This document shows positions 6,817 through 38,224 of a DNA stretch of 39,131 nt, piece after piece. Every line of letters starts with the position of its first letter. Position 1 is the stretch's first letter. The notes below the pieces were generated by a model. The model was given only the letters and a program-made list of their open reading frames with translations. It had not been told where the DNA came from and made no database searches. Origin of the DNA: a virus (taxonomy: Duplodnaviria > Caudoviricetes); IMG/VR virus record IMGVR_UViG_3300007973_000005, positions 1 to 39,131 of that record, one strand, 5' to 3'. The translations under genes and the position numbers were made by a program.

Positions 6817-7385
6817 GCACAACCTACAAAGTCACGACGGAGCCGACGACTGAGCCAATCACATTGGACCAGTTCAAAGACGCTTTGCGCGTGACTGGTT
6901 GTGACTTCGATGAACAGCTCACCGAACTGCTGAAAGTGTGCCGCAAGCAGGTAGAGCATGACAGCTATCGAAAGCTGATCACTCAGACGGTTACGTTGTA
7001 CATGGACGACTTTCCGGATGAGGACGAAATTGAAATTCGTCTTGCTCCGGTGTCAGCAATCAACTTTGTGAAGTATTACGACGAATCAGAAACGTTGCAG
7101 ACGTTGCCAGTCGGCGATTACTGGACGAATCTGATTGAAACACCGCCGGAGATCGAACTGAAACTTGGCTATTCATGGCCAATGGTTCAGATCGAGCGAC
7201 CAAACGCCGTCCAGGTTGAAATGGTTTGCGGATACGGGGCAGCGTCTGCCGTTCCGGTCGAAGCGAAACTGGCAATCAAAGAACTTGGCAAGATGAACTG
7301 GAAGGACTGCACAGGGAGCCGGGCAGTCTATGACAGACTGATGAATCAGTTGGCGTGGACGGGTTACGGAGTGGCACAGGGATGA
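6813..7385 (+). CDS. head-tail connector (gp6/phiE125 gp8-like)
   Basis: EPITLDQFKDALRV, LITQT, AVQVEMVCGYG...VP motifs. Confidence 0.85.
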   Translation: MSTTYKVTTEPTTEPITLDQFKDALRVTGCDFDEQLTELLKVCRKQVEHDSYRKLITQTVTLYMDDFPDEDEIEIRLAPVSAINFVKYYDESETLQTLPVGDYWTNLIETPPEIELKLGYSWPMVQIERPNAVQVEMVCGYGAASAVPVEAKLAIKELGKMNWKDCTGSRAVYDRLMNQLAWTGYGVAQG

Positions 7386-20709: not shown

Positions 20710-20740
20710 CCGGCGAGAGCAAGGGTTCACCGGATTTATC

Positions 20741-26423: not shown

Positions 26424-27606
26424 GCGGGCAATCATCTGTGCCGCCTTTGACGGGGCAGACGCAGTCGACCGGATCGGAAGCCAAGTCAGCACAATGGACT
26501 TCGCTGACATCGCTCTGCGGGCCGTCTGGAACGCTCTGGCGTCGATCGCAGGCGACGGCAAGGCAATTGACCCTGTCCTCGTCTACGAACACATGACGCA
26601 ACGCGGACGGATGCCGCAGCAAATCAGCTTGGAACTTTTGGCCGATCTGTTTTCCGCGCGGTGGGAATCGGCACACATTGATCATTACTGTGCAGCACTT
26701 CAGCAGCACGCAGCCGCGGATGATGCTCATTTGCTCGGTGAACAGTTGGCGCACGAGCCAGTCATCGATCAGGCGATCATTGACGGCTATATCAGCAAGC
26801 TTGATCAGATCCAGCGTGGACGGAAGGACGAAATCAAAACCGTGGCCGATGCGATCCACGGGCTGGAGGAACGCAAGGCAAATCCTCGGGCGATAACTAA
26901 AACCGGATTGACGCAACTTGACGACATCCTGAGAGGCGGGCTGCGAGACGGCCAGTCGATCATAATCGGTGGGCGTCCTGGTGCTGGCAAATCGGTCTTG
27001 ATGACTCAAATCGGCGTCGGGGCTGCTCAGTTCGGGGCCGGGGTTCTGATCGTAAGTCTTGAAATGATGAAAGAAGAATTGATCGACCGGCTGTCAAAGT
27101 CAATTCCATTCGAAACGCTGAGCACGCTGCCGCTGTACTTCATCGACTCGACTTCGGATCTCGGGACGATTCAGAGCCTCGTGAGGGTGGCTTGTCGGCG
27201 TTATAAAATCGGGGTCATCGTGATTGATTATCTCCAGTTGATGGAGGCTAAGGGCGGACGCAATGAAAGCCGAGAACGTGAAATCGCCACGATTAGCCGA
27301 AGACTAAAGCGGATGGCATTGGACCTGCAGAAGCCGGTGATTGTCGGCAGCCAGTTGAATCGTGAATCGACGAAGAAGGGAAAACCGACATTGGCGGATC
27401 TTCGTGAGTCGGGATCGATTGAGCAGGACGCGGATATTGTGTTGCTGTTGAGTGCGAGCGATGACGGGCCGGAGACGTTGCTGCAGGTGGCGAAACAGCG
27501 AGGTGGAAGGACGGGTGAGATCACGCTGAAGCTGGATGGCCCTCGGTTCATGTTTGAAGCGGAAGCGTCTTCAACCGATTGGGCGGAAAGACGATTCGGC
27601 AATTGA
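26401..27606 (+). CDS. dnaB: DnaB-like replicative helicase
   Basis: GGRPGAGKS, SLEM, IDYLQL, SQLNR, DLRESGSIEQDAD, KQRGG. Confidence 0.93.
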   Translation: MESRQAIERAIICAAFDGADAVDRIGSQVSTMDFADIALRAVWNALASIAGDGKAIDPVLVYEHMTQRGRMPQQISLELLADLFSARWESAHIDHYCAALQQHAAADDAHLLGEQLAHEPVIDQAIIDGYISKLDQIQRGRKDEIKTVADAIHGLEERKANPRAITKTGLTQLDDILRGGLRDGQSIIIGGRPGAGKSVLMTQIGVGAAQFGAGVLIVSLEMMKEELIDRLSKSIPFETLSTLPLYFIDSTSDLGTIQSLVRVACRRYKIGVIVIDYLQLMEAKGGRNESREREIATISRRLKRMALDLQKPVIVGSQLNRESTKKGKPTLADLRESGSIEQDADIVLLLSASDDGPETLLQVAKQRGGRTGEITLKLDGPRFMFEAEASSTDWAERRFGN

Positions 27607-27637: not shown

Positions 27638-27811
27638 ATGAAAAAGAAAGCCTCAAAAGGTCGCCCGAAACATCCCGCAGGAATGCGAGCCAAGGTCATG
27701 TCGCTGTGGATCAGTCCGAAGCGTGAAAAGAAGATCAAGGCCAGCGCAAAACGGCAAGGCGTCAGTGTGTCGGAGGCGATTGGCAGGCTGATTGATGACG
27801 CTGAAGAGTAG
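27638..27811 (+). CDS. ribbon-helix-helix (CopG-like) DNA-binding protein (57 aa)
   Basis: Absent from the ORF track; KGRPK...KVMSLWISPKREKKIKASAKRQGVSVSEAIGRLI. Confidence 0.7.
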   Translation: MKKKASKGRPKHPAGMRAKVMSLWISPKREKKIKASAKRQGVSVSEAIGRLIDDAEE

Positions 27812-27833
27812 CGGTGTGGAACATCCGCTGTTC
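27806..27833. repeat. palindromic boundary site A
   Basis: GAGTAGCGG-TGTGGAACAT-CCGCTGTTC; contains the RHH stop TAG. Confidence 0.85.
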
Positions 27834-27854
27834 ACAAAAACAAAGGGGAAAGTT

Positions 27855-28277
27855 ATGAAAAGCAGGTTATTGGAAAACGGAATGATGTCGTGGGAATGCA
27901 GGATCGACAGGGACCATCCCGAGGCTGACGAGGCGACGGCGGTGATTCATATTCCGATCGCAGGTAGTCCGCACATGGTAGTGCAGGTCTGCGAAATCGA
28001 CTGCATTCCGTGCGGTCCAGATGAGTACGGCGACAACAATATCATTCGCGATGGTGAGGATGGCGATCGGTGGCGGAATGTGGTGCTGATTGCGTGTGCT
28101 CCACATTTGCTGAATGCCGTGCAGCAAGCGGAAAAGAAACTGGAAGCCATCGTACAGGCCGGAATGGCGGATGGCGGGATCTGCAAGACTGAGCATGATT
28201 TGTGGGTCAGCCTGGAGGGAATTCGCCGCGAGCTTGATGTTGCGGCGGATTGGGCTACGGATGTCGGGTCGTTTTGA
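27855..28277 (+). CDS. hypothetical protein (unit A-B)
   Basis: RBS GGGGA before ATG 27855; NVVLIACAPHLL resembles the NARLIAAAPELL phage family. Confidence 0.65.
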   Translation: MKSRLLENGMMSWECRIDRDHPEADEATAVIHIPIAGSPHMVVQVCEIDCIPCGPDEYGDNNIIRDGEDGDRWRNVVLIACAPHLLNAVQQAEKKLEAIVQAGMADGGICKTEHDLWVSLEGIRRELDVAADWATDVGSF

Positions 28278-28302
28278 GTAGAGGTAATTGCATCCGCTGT
28301 TC
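28276..28302. repeat. palindromic boundary site B
   Basis: GAGTAGAGG-TAATTGCAT-CCGCTGTTC; overlaps stop TGA 28275-77. Confidence 0.85.
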
Positions 28303-28326
28303 CTGAAAACATTGGGGATTCATCAA

Positions 28327-28620
28327 ATGCCAAAACAGATAACAAGGTTTCACGACAGGCTAAAAAGCCAAACGGCTGAGCAGTGGGCGGTTGAGGTTGA
28401 GGCGACAATCGACAGCTACGCGATGATGTTCGCAGACGGAGATCAAGTCGCGTGCGATGAGAGAGAGCGAATCAGGAATCGAGTCGAAATTCTTCGGCGG
28501 CAGGAATCTGAATGCTGGGATCGTATCGAGCGGACTGCAAAGCAAATTCAGTGTATCCGCGAAGAAGGATATGCCTTGCTTCAAAACGCGTTGGATTTGA
28601 ATCAGAAAAGGAACGGATGA
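28327..28620 (+). CDS. hypothetical coiled-coil protein (unit B-C)
   Basis: RBS GGGGA before ATG 28327. Confidence 0.6.
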   Translation: MPKQITRFHDRLKSQTAEQWAVEVEATIDSYAMMFADGDQVACDERERIRNRVEILRRQESECWDRIERTAKQIQCIREEGYALLQNALDLNQKRNG

Positions 28621-28862
28621 TGCGTTGGTTCAAGGCGATGCGATCGACAGGTGAGAAGAATCAGCCGGGGGAATTTACTGTAGAGGATTCTGATGGCGTC
28701 GAATGGCAGGTAACTGCGATCGACAGCAAGAAGAAGCCTGGGACCTTAACTCTCCTGAATGAAGTGGTCTGCATGAATCGAGGCTACGAATGCGGCTCGG
28801 AAATGCGGGCGGACATTCACCAGGCAGTGCGGGACCTGATTGATTCGGAATCTGTAGGGTGA
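28617..28862 (+). CDS. hypothetical protein (unit B-C)
   Basis: ATGA coupling; RBS AGGA. Confidence 0.6.
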   Translation: MMRWFKAMRSTGEKNQPGEFTVEDSDGVEWQVTAIDSKKKPGTLTLLNEVVCMNRGYECGSEMRADIHQAVRDLIDSESVG

Positions 28863-28887
28863 GCAGAGGAACTTGTATGCTCTGTCC
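28861..28887. repeat. palindromic boundary site C
   Basis: GAGCAGAGG-AACTTGTAT-GCTCTGTCC; overlaps stop TGA 28860-62. Confidence 0.75.
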
Positions 28888-28970
28888 CGATGGTCGGGAT
28901 GGTGGAAGTGTGGAAAATACGGCAGTTGTGGCTCAAAAATGACACCGCTGCTCTTTTGTGGAGAATCAAG

Positions 28971-29399
28971 GTGGGAAAGCATACGCCCGGACCGTGGAAG
29001 ACCGTGAACAAACCCGACTATGCGTCTTACGGTGGAATCGGGATTGAGCAGGACTCAGGCTCAAAAGATGAGAACGTAATTTGTGAGATCTGGCCAATCA
29101 AAACCGTGCCGACAGAAGATCCTGAGGCTCAAGGAAACGCTCTCCTGATTGCTGCTGCCCCTGAGATGCTGGAGGCTTTGCGCGACGCGGTGAGGCTCAT
29201 TGAGCATCTTGGTGGGAACGCTAGCCACCAGAAGAAGATGATTGCTAAGGCGGAGAACTGCGACGAATCGACAATGCAATCGTCGGACATCCGTTTTGGA
29301 CATGTTGTTGGGCTGATCGTAATGGCCGGTGACACAGCCGGCACATATGGTCGTCAGGCAATTGGCATTCCCGAGCAGGCGATTACTGTGCGTAGGTAG
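28971..29399 (+). CDS. hypothetical phage protein of the KHTPGPW...NALLIAAAPEMLEAL family
   Basis: RBS GGAG before GTG 28971; recurrent phage motif. Confidence 0.7.
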   Translation: MGKHTPGPWKTVNKPDYASYGGIGIEQDSGSKDENVICEIWPIKTVPTEDPEAQGNALLIAAAPEMLEALRDAVRLIEHLGGNASHQKKMIAKAENCDESTMQSSDIRFGHVVGLIVMAGDTAGTYGRQAIGIPEQAITVRR

Positions 29400-29403
29400 C
29401 GAT

Positions 29404-29430
29404 CAACAGCGGAATTCCGTTCCGCTGCTC
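29404..29430. repeat. palindromic boundary site D
   Basis: CAACAGCGG-AATTCCGTT-CCGCTGCTC; 4 nt after the stop. Confidence 0.85.
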
Positions 29431-29474
29431 ATCGTGGGTGGTGGAATTCATTGGTAATTTCAAAGGGTGATCAG

Positions 29475-30188
29475 ATGAAGAAACTTGAATCAGTTGCCGG
29501 TGGACATATTCGACATGCTATCCATAACGCCATCGCAGAAGCCGTGGCATGTGGTGAGCATTGTCAGTTCGATTTCAACGGAGTCTCAGTTGTCGTGGCT
29601 GGTGATTCAAATCCTGATCTGATCTATCGGGATTGGGATCGTGGAATGCGTGGGTATCTTGGGAAAGAATCATCGGTCGGGCCGTATCCAGAGCCAACAC
29701 TGACAGCAGTCACGATGGAAAGTGATGCCGCGATTCAAGCGGCTAAAGACCGTGTTCGAGAAGTGCGAGAGGAAGAGGCCAGAAAGGAAGCCGCGAAGCA
29801 AAAGACTGCTCTACAGGGTGCTTTGAGTGTCGCCGGTCCAATTGAGTTGGTCGACGAAGAGGGCTGGAACAAATTCAAGGCGAACAACACGGACGGCTAC
29901 GGCGGTCGAGTCGTCCGGTACGCTGAAGAGTGGGCGCGACTGATGCAAACTCGGTTGGCCAACGGAGAAACAATCGCTCAGTGTGCGGACGAGCTGAGTC
30001 ACCTTGCCGACGATGATGGAATCACTGGCTTCATGTATGGCTGTGCTGTCGGAACCTTGGCAAAAGTCTGGAAGCACGGGGAGGCCCTGCGGCGGTGGCA
30101 CAACAAGGAAACGCAGATCGGCACTGAAGGCGACAAGGCAAACGAGTCTGGTGGCGTTCTGAATCCTGCTCTGCTCAGCATCGGATGA
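29475..30188 (+). CDS. hypothetical protein (unit D-E)
   Basis: Long ORF; GITGFMYGCAV..L...WKHGEALRRWHN motif. Confidence 0.7.
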   Translation: MKKLESVAGGHIRHAIHNAIAEAVACGEHCQFDFNGVSVVVAGDSNPDLIYRDWDRGMRGYLGKESSVGPYPEPTLTAVTMESDAAIQAAKDRVREVREEEARKEAAKQKTALQGALSVAGPIELVDEEGWNKFKANNTDGYGGRVVRYAEEWARLMQTRLANGETIAQCADELSHLADDDGITGFMYGCAVGTLAKVWKHGEALRRWHNKETQIGTEGDKANESGGVLNPALLSIG

Positions 30189-30213
30189 GCATCGGTATCG
30201 TGTTCCTCTGTTT
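30187..30213. repeat. palindromic boundary site E
   Basis: GAGCATCGG-TATCGTGTT-CCTCTGTTT; overlaps stop TGA 30186-88. Confidence 0.8.
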
Positions 30214-30228
30214 AAGGTTTGGTGAGTT

Positions 30229-30690
30229 ATGGTCGGTAACATTTTAACGATTGGTCAGTGTGCCAAACTTTGCGGCGTCACTCCTCGCGATGTCGCGAAG
30301 TGGTTCGACACTGGGCGTCTGAGGGGATATCGAATTCCAGGATCTCAGGACCGAAGAGTTCCGAAGGAATACCTGTTGCGGTTCTTGCGTGAGCAGGGAA
30401 TGGCGATTCCTAACGAGCTGACTGAACCGGAGAGCGATGGCGGCAATAAGGAAATTGCGAAGCAGGTCAGGCCAACAGTTGACGACGTGCTGAAAAGCCT
30501 CAGGGGCGACCCTGAAAACTTCCGGCAGATACTAACCGACAAAGATACGCTGCTTCAGAAGCTGTGCAAATACGCAAAGCGAAAAAGCGAGGATGAACAG
30601 GTTCCTGCGTGGTCCATTGTTGGTGAGATCTTAGGTCACGGAAGCGGCGTTTCATCGGCGATTTACGAACTGTACAGAGAGTACAAGTAA
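30229..30690 (+). CDS. excisionase/MerR-like HTH domain protein (unit E-F)
   Basis: LTIGQCAKLCGVTPRDVAKWFDTGRLRGYRIPGSQDRRVP. Confidence 0.8.
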   Translation: MVGNILTIGQCAKLCGVTPRDVAKWFDTGRLRGYRIPGSQDRRVPKEYLLRFLREQGMAIPNELTEPESDGGNKEIAKQVRPTVDDVLKSLRGDPENFRQILTDKDTLLQKLCKYAKRKSEDEQVPAWSIVGEILGHGSGVSSAIYELYREYK

Positions 30691-30714
30691 ACGCGGTTCG
30701 TGGTTCCTCTGCTC
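30688..30714. repeat. palindromic boundary site F
   Basis: TAAACGCGG-TTCGTGGTT-CCTCTGCTC; begins with stop TAA. Confidence 0.75.
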
Positions 30715-30737
30715 ACGAAAACATTGGGGAAATCGTC

Positions 30738-31325
30738 ATGACGTGCGAAATCAAAGACGCGAGACTCTGCCGCAAATGTGATGTTGTCACTGCCGATCAG
30801 CACTGTGATCTGTGCGGCAAGAGGACTGCGCCACACCCGGAATCAGGTTCGCCGGACTCGGTACAGTATTGCATCGACTGCGGGGAGGAATTCACGGCGG
30901 CTGAAGTGATTGTCAGGACGTTTAAGGATGATCCATACTGCCAGTGCGAGGACGGGGATCTGATAACGGTCTGCCGGAAATGCGAGGCATTCCGAATCGA
31001 GGAAGTGGGCGACGTTCCCAGTGCTTCGGAATCGACACCTTCTGCAGACAGTGAAGTCCCAGACGAAAAGGTAGAGAAATTCATCCTGTCAGTCCTGGAC
31101 GACTACAAGAGCCACGACTGGGACGATGTGCTGATTGAAGTTGATTCAGAGTTCCGGAAAGCAGGGATTACGCTCGGCGCTCGGCAGTCTGAAAAGTGCC
31201 TCGGAAATCTCGTGGAACGCAGGGAAGTAAGCCAGCGATGGATCGGCGATTTCTGTAACCTGAAGAGAATCAGGAAGCCGGTCGCGGTGACTTCTCAGCG
31301 GCCTTTGTTTGCGGACTGCGAATAA
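30738..31325 (+). CDS. Cys-rich (multiple CxxC) protein with a possible C-terminal wHTH (unit F-G)
   Basis: CRKC, CDLC, CIDC, CQC, CRKC; RBS GGGGA. Confidence 0.65.
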   Translation: MTCEIKDARLCRKCDVVTADQHCDLCGKRTAPHPESGSPDSVQYCIDCGEEFTAAEVIVRTFKDDPYCQCEDGDLITVCRKCEAFRIEEVGDVPSASESTPSADSEVPDEKVEKFILSVLDDYKSHDWDDVLIEVDSEFRKAGITLGARQSEKCLGNLVERREVSQRWIGDFCNLKRIRKPVAVTSQRPLFADCE

Positions 31326-31349
31326 CAGAGGTTTGGTACTCCGATCCTC
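31323..31349. repeat. palindromic boundary site G
   Basis: TAACAGAGG-TTTGGTACT-CCGATCCTC; begins with stop TAA. Confidence 0.75.
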
Positions 31350-31351
31350 AA

Positions 31352-31452
31352 GGTCAGGTGGTGTAGAGTCAAAGGCGTCCGGACGCTGGAGACGACGGAA
31401 ACACGGGTTTCGTTTACGGAACTTACCCTCGGTTCGAATCCGAGCCTGACCA
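31352..31452 (+). ncRNA. tRNA-like RNA with a 36-nt expanded D-loop
   Basis: GGTCAGG/CCTGACC acceptor, GTGT/ACAC D stem, CTCGG-TTCGAAT-CCGAG T arm; abnormal anticodon arm. Confidence 0.7.
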
Positions 31453-31584
31453 ATCTGGAGGCCCTTCAGAAAGGCAAAAAATGAACCGACCGGCGATATC
31501 CAGACAGGCCGGTCAATTGGGATGCAAGCACTTCGGTTGTGCTCGATGCAGCTTAGCGGCTGAATCGGTGTCGCAAATGACTCG

Positions 31585-31656
31585 GGGACGCCTGAGAGGT
31601 ATGCGGCATAAACGGGGACAAACCCTGTGGGCTCGGTTCGACTCCGGGGCGTTCCA
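31585..31656 (+). ncRNA. tRNA-like RNA with a G3-U70/A73 acceptor and no canonical D stem
   Basis: GGGACGC/GCGTTCC-A, CTCGG-TTCGACT-CCGGG T arm, ACGGG/CCTGT stem with loop GACAAAC. Confidence 0.65.
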
Positions 31657-31666
31657 CTTGTGAAAC

Positions 31667-31693
31667 AAGTAGCGGATAACCATATCGATAGTC
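31667..31693. repeat. palindromic boundary site H (degenerate)
   Basis: AAGTAGCGG-ATAACCATA-TCGATAGTC. Confidence 0.55.
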
Positions 31694-31771
31694 GCGGAAA
31701 CTATGGAAAATCAGTATCACGATCAGGACGGTAAACCAGTTCGCGGCGGACTCGACGACGTGACATAATGC

Positions 31772-31921
31772 ATGGTTGCTGGGCGGATCCTGTTGGGACC
31801 GGATGGGAAGCGACTGCAGTCGGACTCAGCACCGATTTATGTGCAGTTTGACATCGGAGACGGCAAGGTGGTGCGGATGCTCAATAGTGGCTATCGAGAG
31901 AAGCCGGATGAGCCAAAGTAA
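31772..31921 (+). CDS. small hypothetical protein (49 aa, unit H-I)
   Basis: MVAGRILLGPDGKRLQSDSAPIYVQFDIGDGKVVRMLNSGYREKPDEPK; its TAA begins site I. Confidence 0.5.
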   Translation: MVAGRILLGPDGKRLQSDSAPIYVQFDIGDGKVVRMLNSGYREKPDEPK

Positions 31922-31945
31922 ACGCGGTTCGGAACTCCGATCGTC
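31919..31945. repeat. palindromic boundary site I
   Basis: TAAACGCGG-TTCGGAACT-CCGATCGTC. Confidence 0.7.
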
Positions 31946-32071
31946 ATGAAGCCATTGACAGCGACACAATCCCTGGTAAACTGTCGGCACCCCATGTGAT
32001 CTCAAATTTAATCCTATGACTGCTACCGGCCTCAGAATTGTGCCGGATTCGTTGCGTCGTGGGGTGTCGAG

Positions 32072-36158: not shown

Positions 36159-36186
36159 GAGTAGCGGATCTGTTGATCCGCTGTTG
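36159..36186. repeat. palindromic site J (same family as A-I; may double as a terminator)
   Basis: GAGTAGCGG-ATCTGTTGAT-CCGCTGTTG, 1 nt after stop TAG and followed by ATTTTT. Confidence 0.75.
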
Positions 36187-36203
36187 ATTTTTGAGGGCTG
36201 AAA

Positions 36204-37415
36204 ATGGGCGTCGAAGCCGTAATTGCAACGCAGGTGATCGACACAACGTCTGTCGGCAGGTCGCTCATGACTGCTGCGGACGCTGCGGCGGCACGGACGG
36301 CATTAAGCCTTGGGACTCTTGCGACACAGTCAGGGACGTTTTCCGGAACGTCCAGCGGCACGAATACTGGCGACCAGACGACAATCTCTGGAAACGCTGG
36401 ATCAGCAACAGTCCTGCAGACTGCTCGGAACATAAACGGAGTCAGCTTCGACGGCTCTGCGAATATCACTGTGACGGCAGCAGGGTCCACGCTTTCGGAC
36501 ACTGTCACTGTTGCGAAAGGCGGGACCGGATTAACTGCACTTGGAACTGCATTGCAGGTGCTGAGGGTTAATGCAGGGGCGACGGCTCTGGAGTATGCCA
36601 CGGCAAGTGGGGGAACTCCGGCCGGTTCCAGTGGGCAGGTTCAGTACAACAATGCCGGGGCATTTGGAGGAATGACGGCAGTCGTGTACGCAGGTTCCGG
36701 CACACTCCTTACTGTGACATCACAGGCTGCGTCAGACGTTCCGCTGTTGGTAAAAGGTGCGGCAAGCCAATCCGGAAATCTGATCGAGACGCGAAACAGC
36801 AGCAACACGGTTTTGACAGCGATCACGTCTGCAGGAGACATACTCTGCTCGATGCTTCGCAGCAGCACAGGTGCGACCACTTCAGCAATTTACGTTGCAG
36901 AGGGGTTACGAAAACGCTGGGAGCTAAGTGGAGCCGAGCAAAATCAGTACATGACGACTGGTTGTGCATTTGACGGCGGTTCAAATTGGATTTTAATCGG
37001 TGGGGGCGGTGCTCCAAGTTATGCACCCGGATCATCGACTCACCGAGTATCACTCGACATCACAAATCGAATTCTGTACCTCGGGACGAACATCCTCGCT
37101 TCACCACTGGCGTACACGCTCGCTGGAACTGGTGGCAGTGGAACCAATATTGTCGGCGGGAAACTCACGCTTTCGGCTGGCCGATCGACCGGAAACGCGA
37201 CTCCGGCGGTCGTGGCATTAGCGTCAACGTCTGCTGGTAGCAGCGGCACGACTCTACAAACACTTCGCGACTGCTTGCATGTCGACGGCAATACTACGGC
37301 AGCGGAGACACCACTGTTGCTGTTGGATATCGACAAAGGGACGCTGCAGCGTGTTTCCATTGGTGCGTCTGATTCGGGCGGTACAGGTTTCAAAGTTTTG
37401 AGGGTGCCGAACTAA
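36204..37415 (+). CDS. tail/head fibre-like protein
   Basis: G/T/A/S-rich; TARNINGVSFDGSANITV, VAKGGTG and GQVQYNNAGAFGG fibre motifs. Confidence 0.75.
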   Translation: MGVEAVIATQVIDTTSVGRSLMTAADAAAARTALSLGTLATQSGTFSGTSSGTNTGDQTTISGNAGSATVLQTARNINGVSFDGSANITVTAAGSTLSDTVTVAKGGTGLTALGTALQVLRVNAGATALEYATASGGTPAGSSGQVQYNNAGAFGGMTAVVYAGSGTLLTVTSQAASDVPLLVKGAASQSGNLIETRNSSNTVLTAITSAGDILCSMLRSSTGATTSAIYVAEGLRKRWELSGAEQNQYMTTGCAFDGGSNWILIGGGGAPSYAPGSSTHRVSLDITNRILYLGTNILASPLAYTLAGTGGSGTNIVGGKLTLSAGRSTGNATPAVVALASTSAGSSGTTLQTLRDCLHVDGNTTAAETPLLLLDIDKGTLQRVSIGASDSGGTGFKVLRVPN

Positions 37416-37747
37416 TGGACAAAATAACAATCACAATCACTCGCGGGTGTGACGCTCAAGGCGTCGGCGGTTCAGTCGTCGATAATGCCGCTGCCGTCCT
37501 CGGTTCGATGCCGGACGGAACGCCAATCGTTGACGCTCTGGTCGCGGCATTTGCGGATGCTTACGGGGTTCACGAGGTGGATGGTGAGCCAGTCAGCGGA
37601 TACCGCAATTTGTCATACCGTTGCCGTCAGTACATGACTGAGATTGTCTCGTCATACGCAGCAAAAACGGCAGCAGCAGTGGCTCAAAGTCAGGCTCAGG
37701 CGGCAGTGGCTCATGCTCTTGGCTCTGTTCAGATTCTGGAGTCTTAA
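37415..37747 (+). CDS. hypothetical protein (possible fibre chaperone)
   Basis: TAATG coupling to the fibre gene. Confidence 0.55.
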   Translation: MDKITITITRGCDAQGVGGSVVDNAAAVLGSMPDGTPIVDALVAAFADAYGVHEVDGEPVSGYRNLSYRCRQYMTEIVSSYAAKTAAAVAQSQAQAAVAHALGSVQILES

Positions 37748-37750
37748 ACC

Positions 37751-38224
37751 GTGGCGACGCAAACAGTCGAATTCAGATCACCACCATCGCAGACGATCAC
37801 AGCTAAATTGTTTGCAGTTGGGAGCGATACGCAGGTTGCGTCGGTATCAGCGACCGAGGCGACCAACCGCAAAGGCACGTATGCAGCGGTCTACACCGAT
37901 GTTGCGGCTGGCGAGTATGAGTTGATTGCATTGGTAGGATCTATTCCAGTGGCTCGCTGGTTTGTCACCCTAACACTAACGACGGCGACGTTTCAGGCAC
38001 GCGAAAAAGTAAACGCGGAACTGGACTCCGCTGTTGCGACGAAGATCGACAACATCCAAGACGCTGCAGGGTGGCTCTTGGCAATCAGCTCTGGAGCCGT
38101 CGCGAATCCGCAGACATCGACTGAGCAATACGACATCACGCAATTTGGCGTCAATTATCGAGTTGCGATGGCAGGGTTGACTTCCACTGGAACAAGGACA
38201 GCGCCAACGCTGAGCAAGCCATGA
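37751..38224 (+). CDS. hypothetical virion-like protein
   Basis: Beta-rich; NRKGTYAA and GTRTAPTL motifs; RBS GGAG. Confidence 0.6.
   Translation: MATQTVEFRSPPSQTITAKLFAVGSDTQVASVSATEATNRKGTYAAVYTDVAAGEYELIALVGSIPVARWFVTLTLTTATFQAREKVNAELDSAVATKIDNIQDAAGWLLAISSGAVANPQTSTEQYDITQFGVNYRVAMAGLTSTGTRTAPTLSKP

Follow-up and report, generated by a model that had tools for sequence, protein, structure and literature searches.

We analyzed a 39,131-bp stretch of DNA (the window), which is the entire virus record IMGVR_UViG_3300007973_000005 and comes from a water phage, and we followed a family of two-armed sites that divides part of it into slots holding genes or RNAs. We found that each site has a middle sequence, or core, specific to its position, that related phages carry these cores in one order with differing genes between them, and that homology between the phages starts and stops at the sites. 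The best reading of the array is natural cassette exchange by matched-core double crossover, not integron-type capture. We put the probability at roughly 0.7 that the sites are fixed points of crossover, used by a Cre-like recombinase that some of the phages encode to swap DNA between matching cores of co-infecting related phages. What is shown directly comprises the anatomy of the sites, the fixed order of their cores, breakpoints that fall within them, slots that are empty, an in-frame junction at one site, and, for the enzyme gene, its position and predicted fold.

Position-specific sites in the window

An earlier note, made from the sequence of the window, had described nine sites (A to I) with 9-bp inverted arms around a 9-bp spacer (10 bp in A), and we found all nine at their coordinates. 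That note had confined the family to positions 27806 to 31945. We built a leave-one-out matrix from the sites and scanned it against ~39,100 other positions of the window. Per site, 0 to 4 of these scored higher, which places the motif far above background, and the two top positions, J (36159) and K (38010), are further members of the family. In 76 other viral loci, which total 1.18 Mb, 8 positions scored at least 15, with no more than 2 per locus.

As previously described, seven sites overlap a stop codon: open reading frames (ORFs) ending at 27811, 28277, 28862, 30188, 30690, 31325, and 31921 stop in A, B, C, E, F, G, and I, respectively, and D begins 4 nt past the stop at 29399. The arms of single sites in the window match each other at merely 4 to 7 of 9 positions. 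The spacer had been called variable; we found instead that it is position specific, with each position, or address, having its own core. The sites are as follows.

Site A, 27806 to 27833, + strand: core ends GAACAT
Site B, 28276 to 28302, + strand: core TAATTGCAT
Site C, 28861 to 28887, + strand: core AACTTGTAT
Site D, 29404 to 29430, + strand: core wATTCCGTT
Site E, 30187 to 30213, + strand: core wATCGTGTT
Site F, 30688 to 30714, + strand: core wTCGTGGTT
Site G, 31323 to 31349, + strand: core ends TGGTACT
Site H, 31667 to 31693, + strand: core ends ACCATA
Site I, 31919 to 31945, + strand: core ends GGAACT; closes the accessory array, with a sigma-70-like promoter just past it at 31955 to 31982
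Site J, 36159 to 36186, + strand: core ATC(T)GTTGAT; left edge of a tail-fibre module
Site K, 38010 to 38036, + strand: core wACTGGACT; in frame within the ORF at 37751 to 38224 (core read as Leu-Asp), joining assorted N- and C-terminal halves

Lone right arms also occur after a TGACA/TGACT-like stretch (window, 28945 to 28953; relatives L001, ~5440; L005, ~11515; and L213, ~9950). They lie shortly past a full site and just 5' of a ribosome-binding site, and they may be decayed sites or extra binding arms. Between the right arm and the ribosome-binding site, a AAAACATTGG-like leader is found at 90 of 297 sites, for example at 28305 to 28316 of the window.

Cores stand in one order across related arrays

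A DnaB search gave 79 loci and, from these, 5 close relatives. The core-B pattern had 30 viral matches, which yielded 21 array-bearing contigs, and 44 metagenome matches, which yielded 31 relatives. Array-less pattern matches (9 of 30 and 13 of 44), duplicate contigs, and four near-identical arrays were omitted from the counts. With duplicates removed and loci found via the candidate recombinase (below) added, the final set comprised 51 arrays with 297 sites.

Across these arrays, the consensus of the left arm is approximately that of the right arm. The cores, which are the constant part of the site, fall into 24 classes, mostly of the form W-N7-W. The right-hand six bases are the steadiest, and the first one or two bases change; over six core bases, the Hamming distance is at least 2 for all but 2 pairs of classes. 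Each phage has a subset of the 24 addresses, up to 16.

We found no conflict in core order in the 51 arrays (0 of 1136 pair observations), compared with a mean of 391 and a minimum of 347 in shuffles. Because the classes had been defined on these data, we tested them on held-out contigs found via core J, a search in which 20 of 33 new matches had fewer than two sites. Among the 13 contigs with at least two sites, a modest set in which several carry J and K only or are near copies, 2 of 87 pairs were discordant, both from one J-K-J-K tandem. The known cores of each array all lie on the gene strand, and in L193 the J-K region as a whole is inverted relative to the array. For five long relatives, tblastn matched neither the head nor the terminase proteins to those of the window, though arrays are common to them. 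Thus, the address map spans different backbones.

Homology between relatives changes at the sites

Exchange almost certainly happens at the sites. The earlier expectation that genes would be exchanged exactly there was borne out by homology borders, by shared and unshared flanks, and by the J-K module. Homology to the window stops at 27834 in L001 and L002, and it begins at 27806 in L003 and at 38015 in L005. Among pairs of sites at the same address, the upstream flank alone is shared by 156, the downstream flank alone by 82, and both flanks by 25; 2170 share neither, and 269 are unclear. A and B dominate these counts. The switch in identity falls in the span that runs from the left arm to the outer part of the right arm. 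We also found that the 1.9-kb J-K module is 97.6% identical over 36165 to 38032 in L199/L205, with unrelated sequence on either side. At K, the frame is constant (Leu-Asp) while the halves of the protein are assorted, and two N-terminal and two C-terminal halves occur in all four combinations (L216, L232, G003, and L197). Among the 24 of 72 loose ends listed for contigs of public runs, many lie within a site or shortly after one. No circle or back-joint was listed for these contigs, an outcome that favors neither side.

Some slots hold no cargo, their two sites being retained 6 to 11 nt apart (7 of 207 units), and slot A-B is empty in some arrays. Other joints have mismatched cores: the same cassette and left arm are followed by E1 in L128 and by G2 in L177. 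In a second case the corresponding cores are H (L097) and I (L087), and in a third they are D2 (G001) and E1 (G004). Tandems were seen as B-gene-B in L118, C*-...-C in L153, and J-K-J-K in L213, and a rare duplication is also present in L134. In L213/L234 (7994 to 12103), the J-K-J-K tandem holds two unlike tail modules, and a short, truncated frame separates the first K from the second J.

A candidate recombinase gene precedes the array in some relatives

The earlier note had proposed a tyrosine recombinase acting in trans and had seen no integrase in the window. We likewise found no integrase there by Pfam, PHROGs, or tblastn with the candidate protein P0001, and it is in related phages that sequence and predicted fold point to a candidate gene for such an enzyme. 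P0001 is a 405-aa ORF just before the array of G004, with its stop in the left arm of site A, and was first seen as a weak hit in a Pfam search of the five long relatives. A protein search returned 165 homologues. P0001 matched no NCBIfam family at an E value of 0.01 and nothing in GenBank phages. A PDB sequence search with the P0001 alignment returned stathmin only, which we judged to be a chance match.

The predicted structure of P0001 (predicted local distance difference test score [pLDDT], 80) has the fold of a core-binding and a catalytic domain, like the lambda Int core, XerH, and Cre, and no arm-binding domain. The match to lambda Int (Z, 14.8; root mean square deviation, 3.8; 250 residues) and that to Cre (Z, 13.6) are closely followed by integron integrase 2a3v (Z, 13.1), and the SroF chain scores 11.4. 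Identity to Cre and lambda Int in the structural alignments is 13 to 16%. The tyrosine-recombinase catalytic set, as given in PMC10516654, is R, D/E, K, H, R, H/W, and Y. Among 18 divergent P0001 homologues, R217, D220, K262, R348, and Y385 are invariant and H370 is nearly so. By motif position and conservation, we assigned six of the seven catalytic positions in P0001, compared with three in MrpR.

We fetched 17 distinct loci with P0001, of which 14 were evaluable, as three end within the gene. All 14 have family sites downstream, 11 of them directly at the stop of the gene (two with a decayed left arm), and three homologues of 45 to 46% identity sit 3.5 to 7 kb upstream of sites. The diverged (46%) homologue of L195 goes with a diverged array. 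In L194 (10151) and L195 (10121), a high-scoring site that is absent from L193 lies within the 5' part of a 45 to 46% homologue and may reflect autoregulation or N-terminal swapping. In L181 (8001 to 8145), the recombinase gene has a large internal deletion; its start and last codons are retained, and site A still follows.

G004 carries an ordinary integrase besides P0001, and therefore a prophage could supply a P0001-type enzyme. We also considered the arm-binding integrases of G001 and G004 as the array enzyme; they lie away from the arrays, and we took them to be ordinary prophage integrases. The idea that the same cassettes would stand in host arrays next to a tyrosine recombinase found no support in the two genomes examined, where the P0001-type gene is on phage-like contigs only. 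Two GTDB matches labeled Gammaproteobacteria and Chitinophaga were rejected as hosts, as they look like binned contigs of phages, and only 1 and 4 matches to the strict pattern were found in these genomes. Plasmids gave no pointer to the host. Database matches of the helix-turn-helix (HTH) protein of the window are mixed. A resemblance hints that the host might be a member of Planctomycetota.

A proposed model of exchange at matching cores

Tyrosine recombinases bind two inverted arms, and their overlap sequences must match. We propose that the P0001-type enzyme would bind the ~10-bp arms and would require a matching overlap of 6 to 7 bp for strand exchange. Because of this requirement and because the cores are distinct, directly repeated sites of one genome would not delete each other. 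A first crossover would fuse two phage genomes, and a second, at another shared address, would resolve them with the module swapped; the common core order would keep the products intact. Phages without the gene, such as that of the window, would rely on enzyme supplied by a prophage or by another phage infecting the cell. Crossovers at mismatched cores, expected to be rarer, would produce deletions that retain one core and would shift cargo to other slots. They could explain the address subsets and, with rare duplications (L118, L153, L134, and L213), perhaps new addresses.

We lean slightly toward a genome-wide address map, common to a phage population, of about two dozen mutually incompatible cores in one order; a new recombinase family, carried by a minority as a public good, would act on it. 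Backbones, the lysis region, the module with the tail fibre, halves of proteins, and individual anti-defence genes would then be traded in an allele-like way.

Several findings weigh against exchange by such an enzyme at matching cores. The HxxR histidine of P0001 is replaced (A345), and the same type of fold is found in repressors such as MrpR (PMC10516654). Of the 34 arrays that were retrieved with other queries, only 6 have a P0001-type gene before A, and the window and four of the five long relatives (one a complete genome) have no such gene. The address classes were set after the data had been seen, the arrays were mostly found via core B or J, and the contigs are related. The entire left arm is identical in only 22% of upstream-sharing pairs and the entire right arm in 46% of downstream-sharing pairs, and these genomes also have mosaic breaks at places that lack a site (e.g., near 20737, 22361, and 24126). 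The cargo also moves. Cargo pairs of at least 95% identity, near-duplicate arrays included, have the same left core in 44 cases and a different one in 6, and a tRNA-like RNA lies in slot G-H of the window but in slot E1-E2 of L193 (~7003 to 7106). Of the cargo families with several members, 27 of 45 stand after more than one core, which weighs against a strict slot model. Together with the mismatched-core joints, this indicates that the core rule leaks.

The alternative that fares best, though we consider it unlikely, is that the sites are operators of a recombinase-fold repressor or of a ribbon-helix-helix (RHH)-like protein and that exchange occurs by homologous recombination at short shared sequences. 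Repressors of the same fold exist (the SroF chain and, in PMC10516654, MrpR), the sites lie within one putative transcription unit, and the window encodes a Holliday-junction resolvase (PHROGs). However, operators have no need of 24 distinct position-locked middles, of a copy that sits in frame within a gene, or of a pair of copies separated by 6 nt. P0001 keeps six catalytic positions where MrpR keeps three, and the gene before A varies among arrays while the arms stay alike.

Next comes an integron-like system, in which single cassettes leave as circles and enter any site, as in the capture and reordering that the earlier note had favored. Consistently with this, the recombinase gene stands at the array head, the stop codon overlaps the left arm at 222 of 288 sites (505 of 7600 random positions), and cargo shifts between slots, with the tandems of L118, L153, and L213. 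In contrast, free insertion would bring foreign cores and scramble the order, and we found the cores in fixed order (0 of 1136), although cargo families do stand after different cores. Full attC ends are absent, as had been seen before (of 280 distinct sites, none has RYYYAAC and 2 have GTTRRRY), the arms show no hairpin covariation, and the P0001-type gene is not beside host arrays in the two genomes examined. We therefore regard integron-type movement as improbable.

It is more doubtful still that a host Xer-like recombinase performs the exchange, with the phage gene as an accessory. Most arrays lack the phage gene, and dif modules operate with host enzymes (PMC13141974). Against this, in 11 of 14 loci the first site is tightly adjoined by the phage gene, and the 46% homologue of L195 is paired with a diverged array. 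We also take the arms to be unlike the Escherichia coli dif sequence and count this against a host enzyme. Finally, RNA hairpins (terminators or RNase III sites) can be dismissed: folding is good at A, D, and G (z, -3.1, -5.3, and -2.6), and pairing within an address slightly exceeds shuffles (5.32 of 9 versus 5.24; P = 0.027), but B, F, and H fold no better than shuffles, the mean of 5.32 over 248 distinct sites is below the 5.52 obtained when left and right arms are paired at random, and a hairpin loop would have no use for a fixed address. That the arms do not covary agrees with the earlier preference for protein-bound double-stranded DNA sites.

Cargo and setting of the array

We found 183 cargo families in 230 units across the arrays, the majority without a Pfam match; the types seen include Tad4, a Lar-like protein, DNA methylases, RNA ligase, and tRNA-like RNA. 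The window contains the following.

Before A, 27638 to 27811, + strand: small RHH-like gene with its stop inside site A; Pfam NikA-like, E = 0.0093, below the cutoff
A-B, 27855 to 28277, + strand: protein without known function; same unit in slot A-B of 9 arrays
B-C, 28327 to 28862, + strand: two short ORFs; starts taken from the sequence
C-D, 28890 to 29399, + strand: phrog_1273 family; true start perhaps near 28971
D-E, 29475 to 30188, + strand: C-terminal Tad4 (anti-Thoeris) domain, PF25186, E = 2.5e-29
E-F, 30229 to 30690, + strand: HTH_17 protein
F-G, 30738 to 31325, + strand: Cys-rich protein without known function
G-H, 31352 to 31660, + strand: tRNA-like 101-nt RNA at 31352 to 31452; second foldable stretch at 31585 to 31660
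H-I, 31772 to 31921, + strand: 49-aa ORF
J-K module, 36187 to 38009, + strand: tail-fibre-like gene at 36204 to 37415 (PHROG tail fibre), gene at 37415 to 37747, and 5' half of the gene at 37751 to 38224

The RHH-like protein stands before A in 12 of 38 arrays, and the candidate recombinase gene has that place in some relatives. The Tad4 domain of D-E is fused to a 120-aa N-terminal part without known function; the fusion also occurs in L080 and in slot A-B of L124, and no arrays were found in Tad4 relatives L080 to L082. The tRNA-like RNA of G-H has an acceptor stem, a T arm, a CCA end, and an enlarged middle, received no call from ARAGORN or Rfam, and is possibly a decoy or substitute tRNA. 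The stretch at 31585 to 31660 has a T-loop-like motif and a CCA-like end (folding z, -3.1).

The window has a one-strand gene set with terminase, portal, head, and tail genes, helicases, a methylase, and a CsrA-like protein (Pfam and PHROGs). A single promoter at 27603 had been suggested upstream of the array. We obtained no call there in a promoter consensus scan of the window, and the best call was the sigma-70-like promoter directly after site I. Homology borders between relatives recur without a family site at 27603 itself and at 20737, 22361, and 24126.

Phage mosaicism at gene borders is usually ascribed to illegitimate or relaxed homologous recombination. A concrete enzyme-and-site pair with many natural substrates offers a testable cause, and, if the genome-wide address map is real, it would amount to a dedicated parasexual system for phage mosaicism and to a natural orthogonal site set for one enzyme. 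One recombinase with ~24 distinguishable cores would serve multisite cassette exchange. Because the cargo includes Tad4 and similar genes among families mostly without a Pfam match, the slots are also a place to seek new counter-defence genes.

Comparison with known systems

The closest known system is the Acinetobacter dif modules, and the layout is like that of an integron; the arrays fall outside both natural families. In its working, the proposed exchange resembles that of dif modules and engineered cassette exchange. According to PMC13141974, the dif modules (pdif) of Acinetobacter Rep_3 plasmids are likewise gene modules between two-armed tyrosine-recombinase sites. That work describes a need for identical or near-identical spacers, replacement of single modules through cointegrates at matching spacers, and empty modules. 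The phage arrays likewise have empty slots, and the proposed model gives them the other two features as well. The end products in the phages (flank-sharing pairs and the J-K module) appear to fit such cointegrate exchange. The same source (PMC13141974) gives pdif host XerC/XerD, a 6-bp spacer, alternating orientation, inversions, and plasmids. In contrast, the phage arrays have a divergent recombinase candidate of their own, one orientation per array without alternation, a single order of 24 addresses, and structural genes among the cargo. Their near-symmetric 9-bp arms around 9 to 10 nt also differ from XerC/XerD boxes with a 6-bp spacer.

Integrons and clusters of attC sites lacking integrases (CALINs) share a tyrosine-recombinase gene (a candidate one in the phages) heading co-oriented single-gene units, a site over the stop, and enzyme-less arrays; phage-borne integrons exist (PMC9892861) but rest on attC. 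The phage arrays differ in their 27-bp sites without attC ends or a hairpin, their fixed order, a recombinase gene codirectional with the array, and the lack of an NCBIfam hit. In the open full-text literature (Creative Commons PMC and bioRxiv), we came across no account of phages with ordered cores.

In Rci shufflons, segments are inverted within one molecule, and a site in frame inside a gene joins alternative protein halves. Site K is like such a site in being in frame between alternative halves, and it is unlike it in that the halves are assorted between genomes. In engineered recombinase-mediated cassette exchange with heterospecific lox or FRT sites, the arms are the same and the cores unlike, and matching pairs exchange without self-deletion. 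The phage arrays differ in being natural, in having about two dozen addresses, and in having a candidate enzyme only 13 to 16% identical to Cre and lambda Int.

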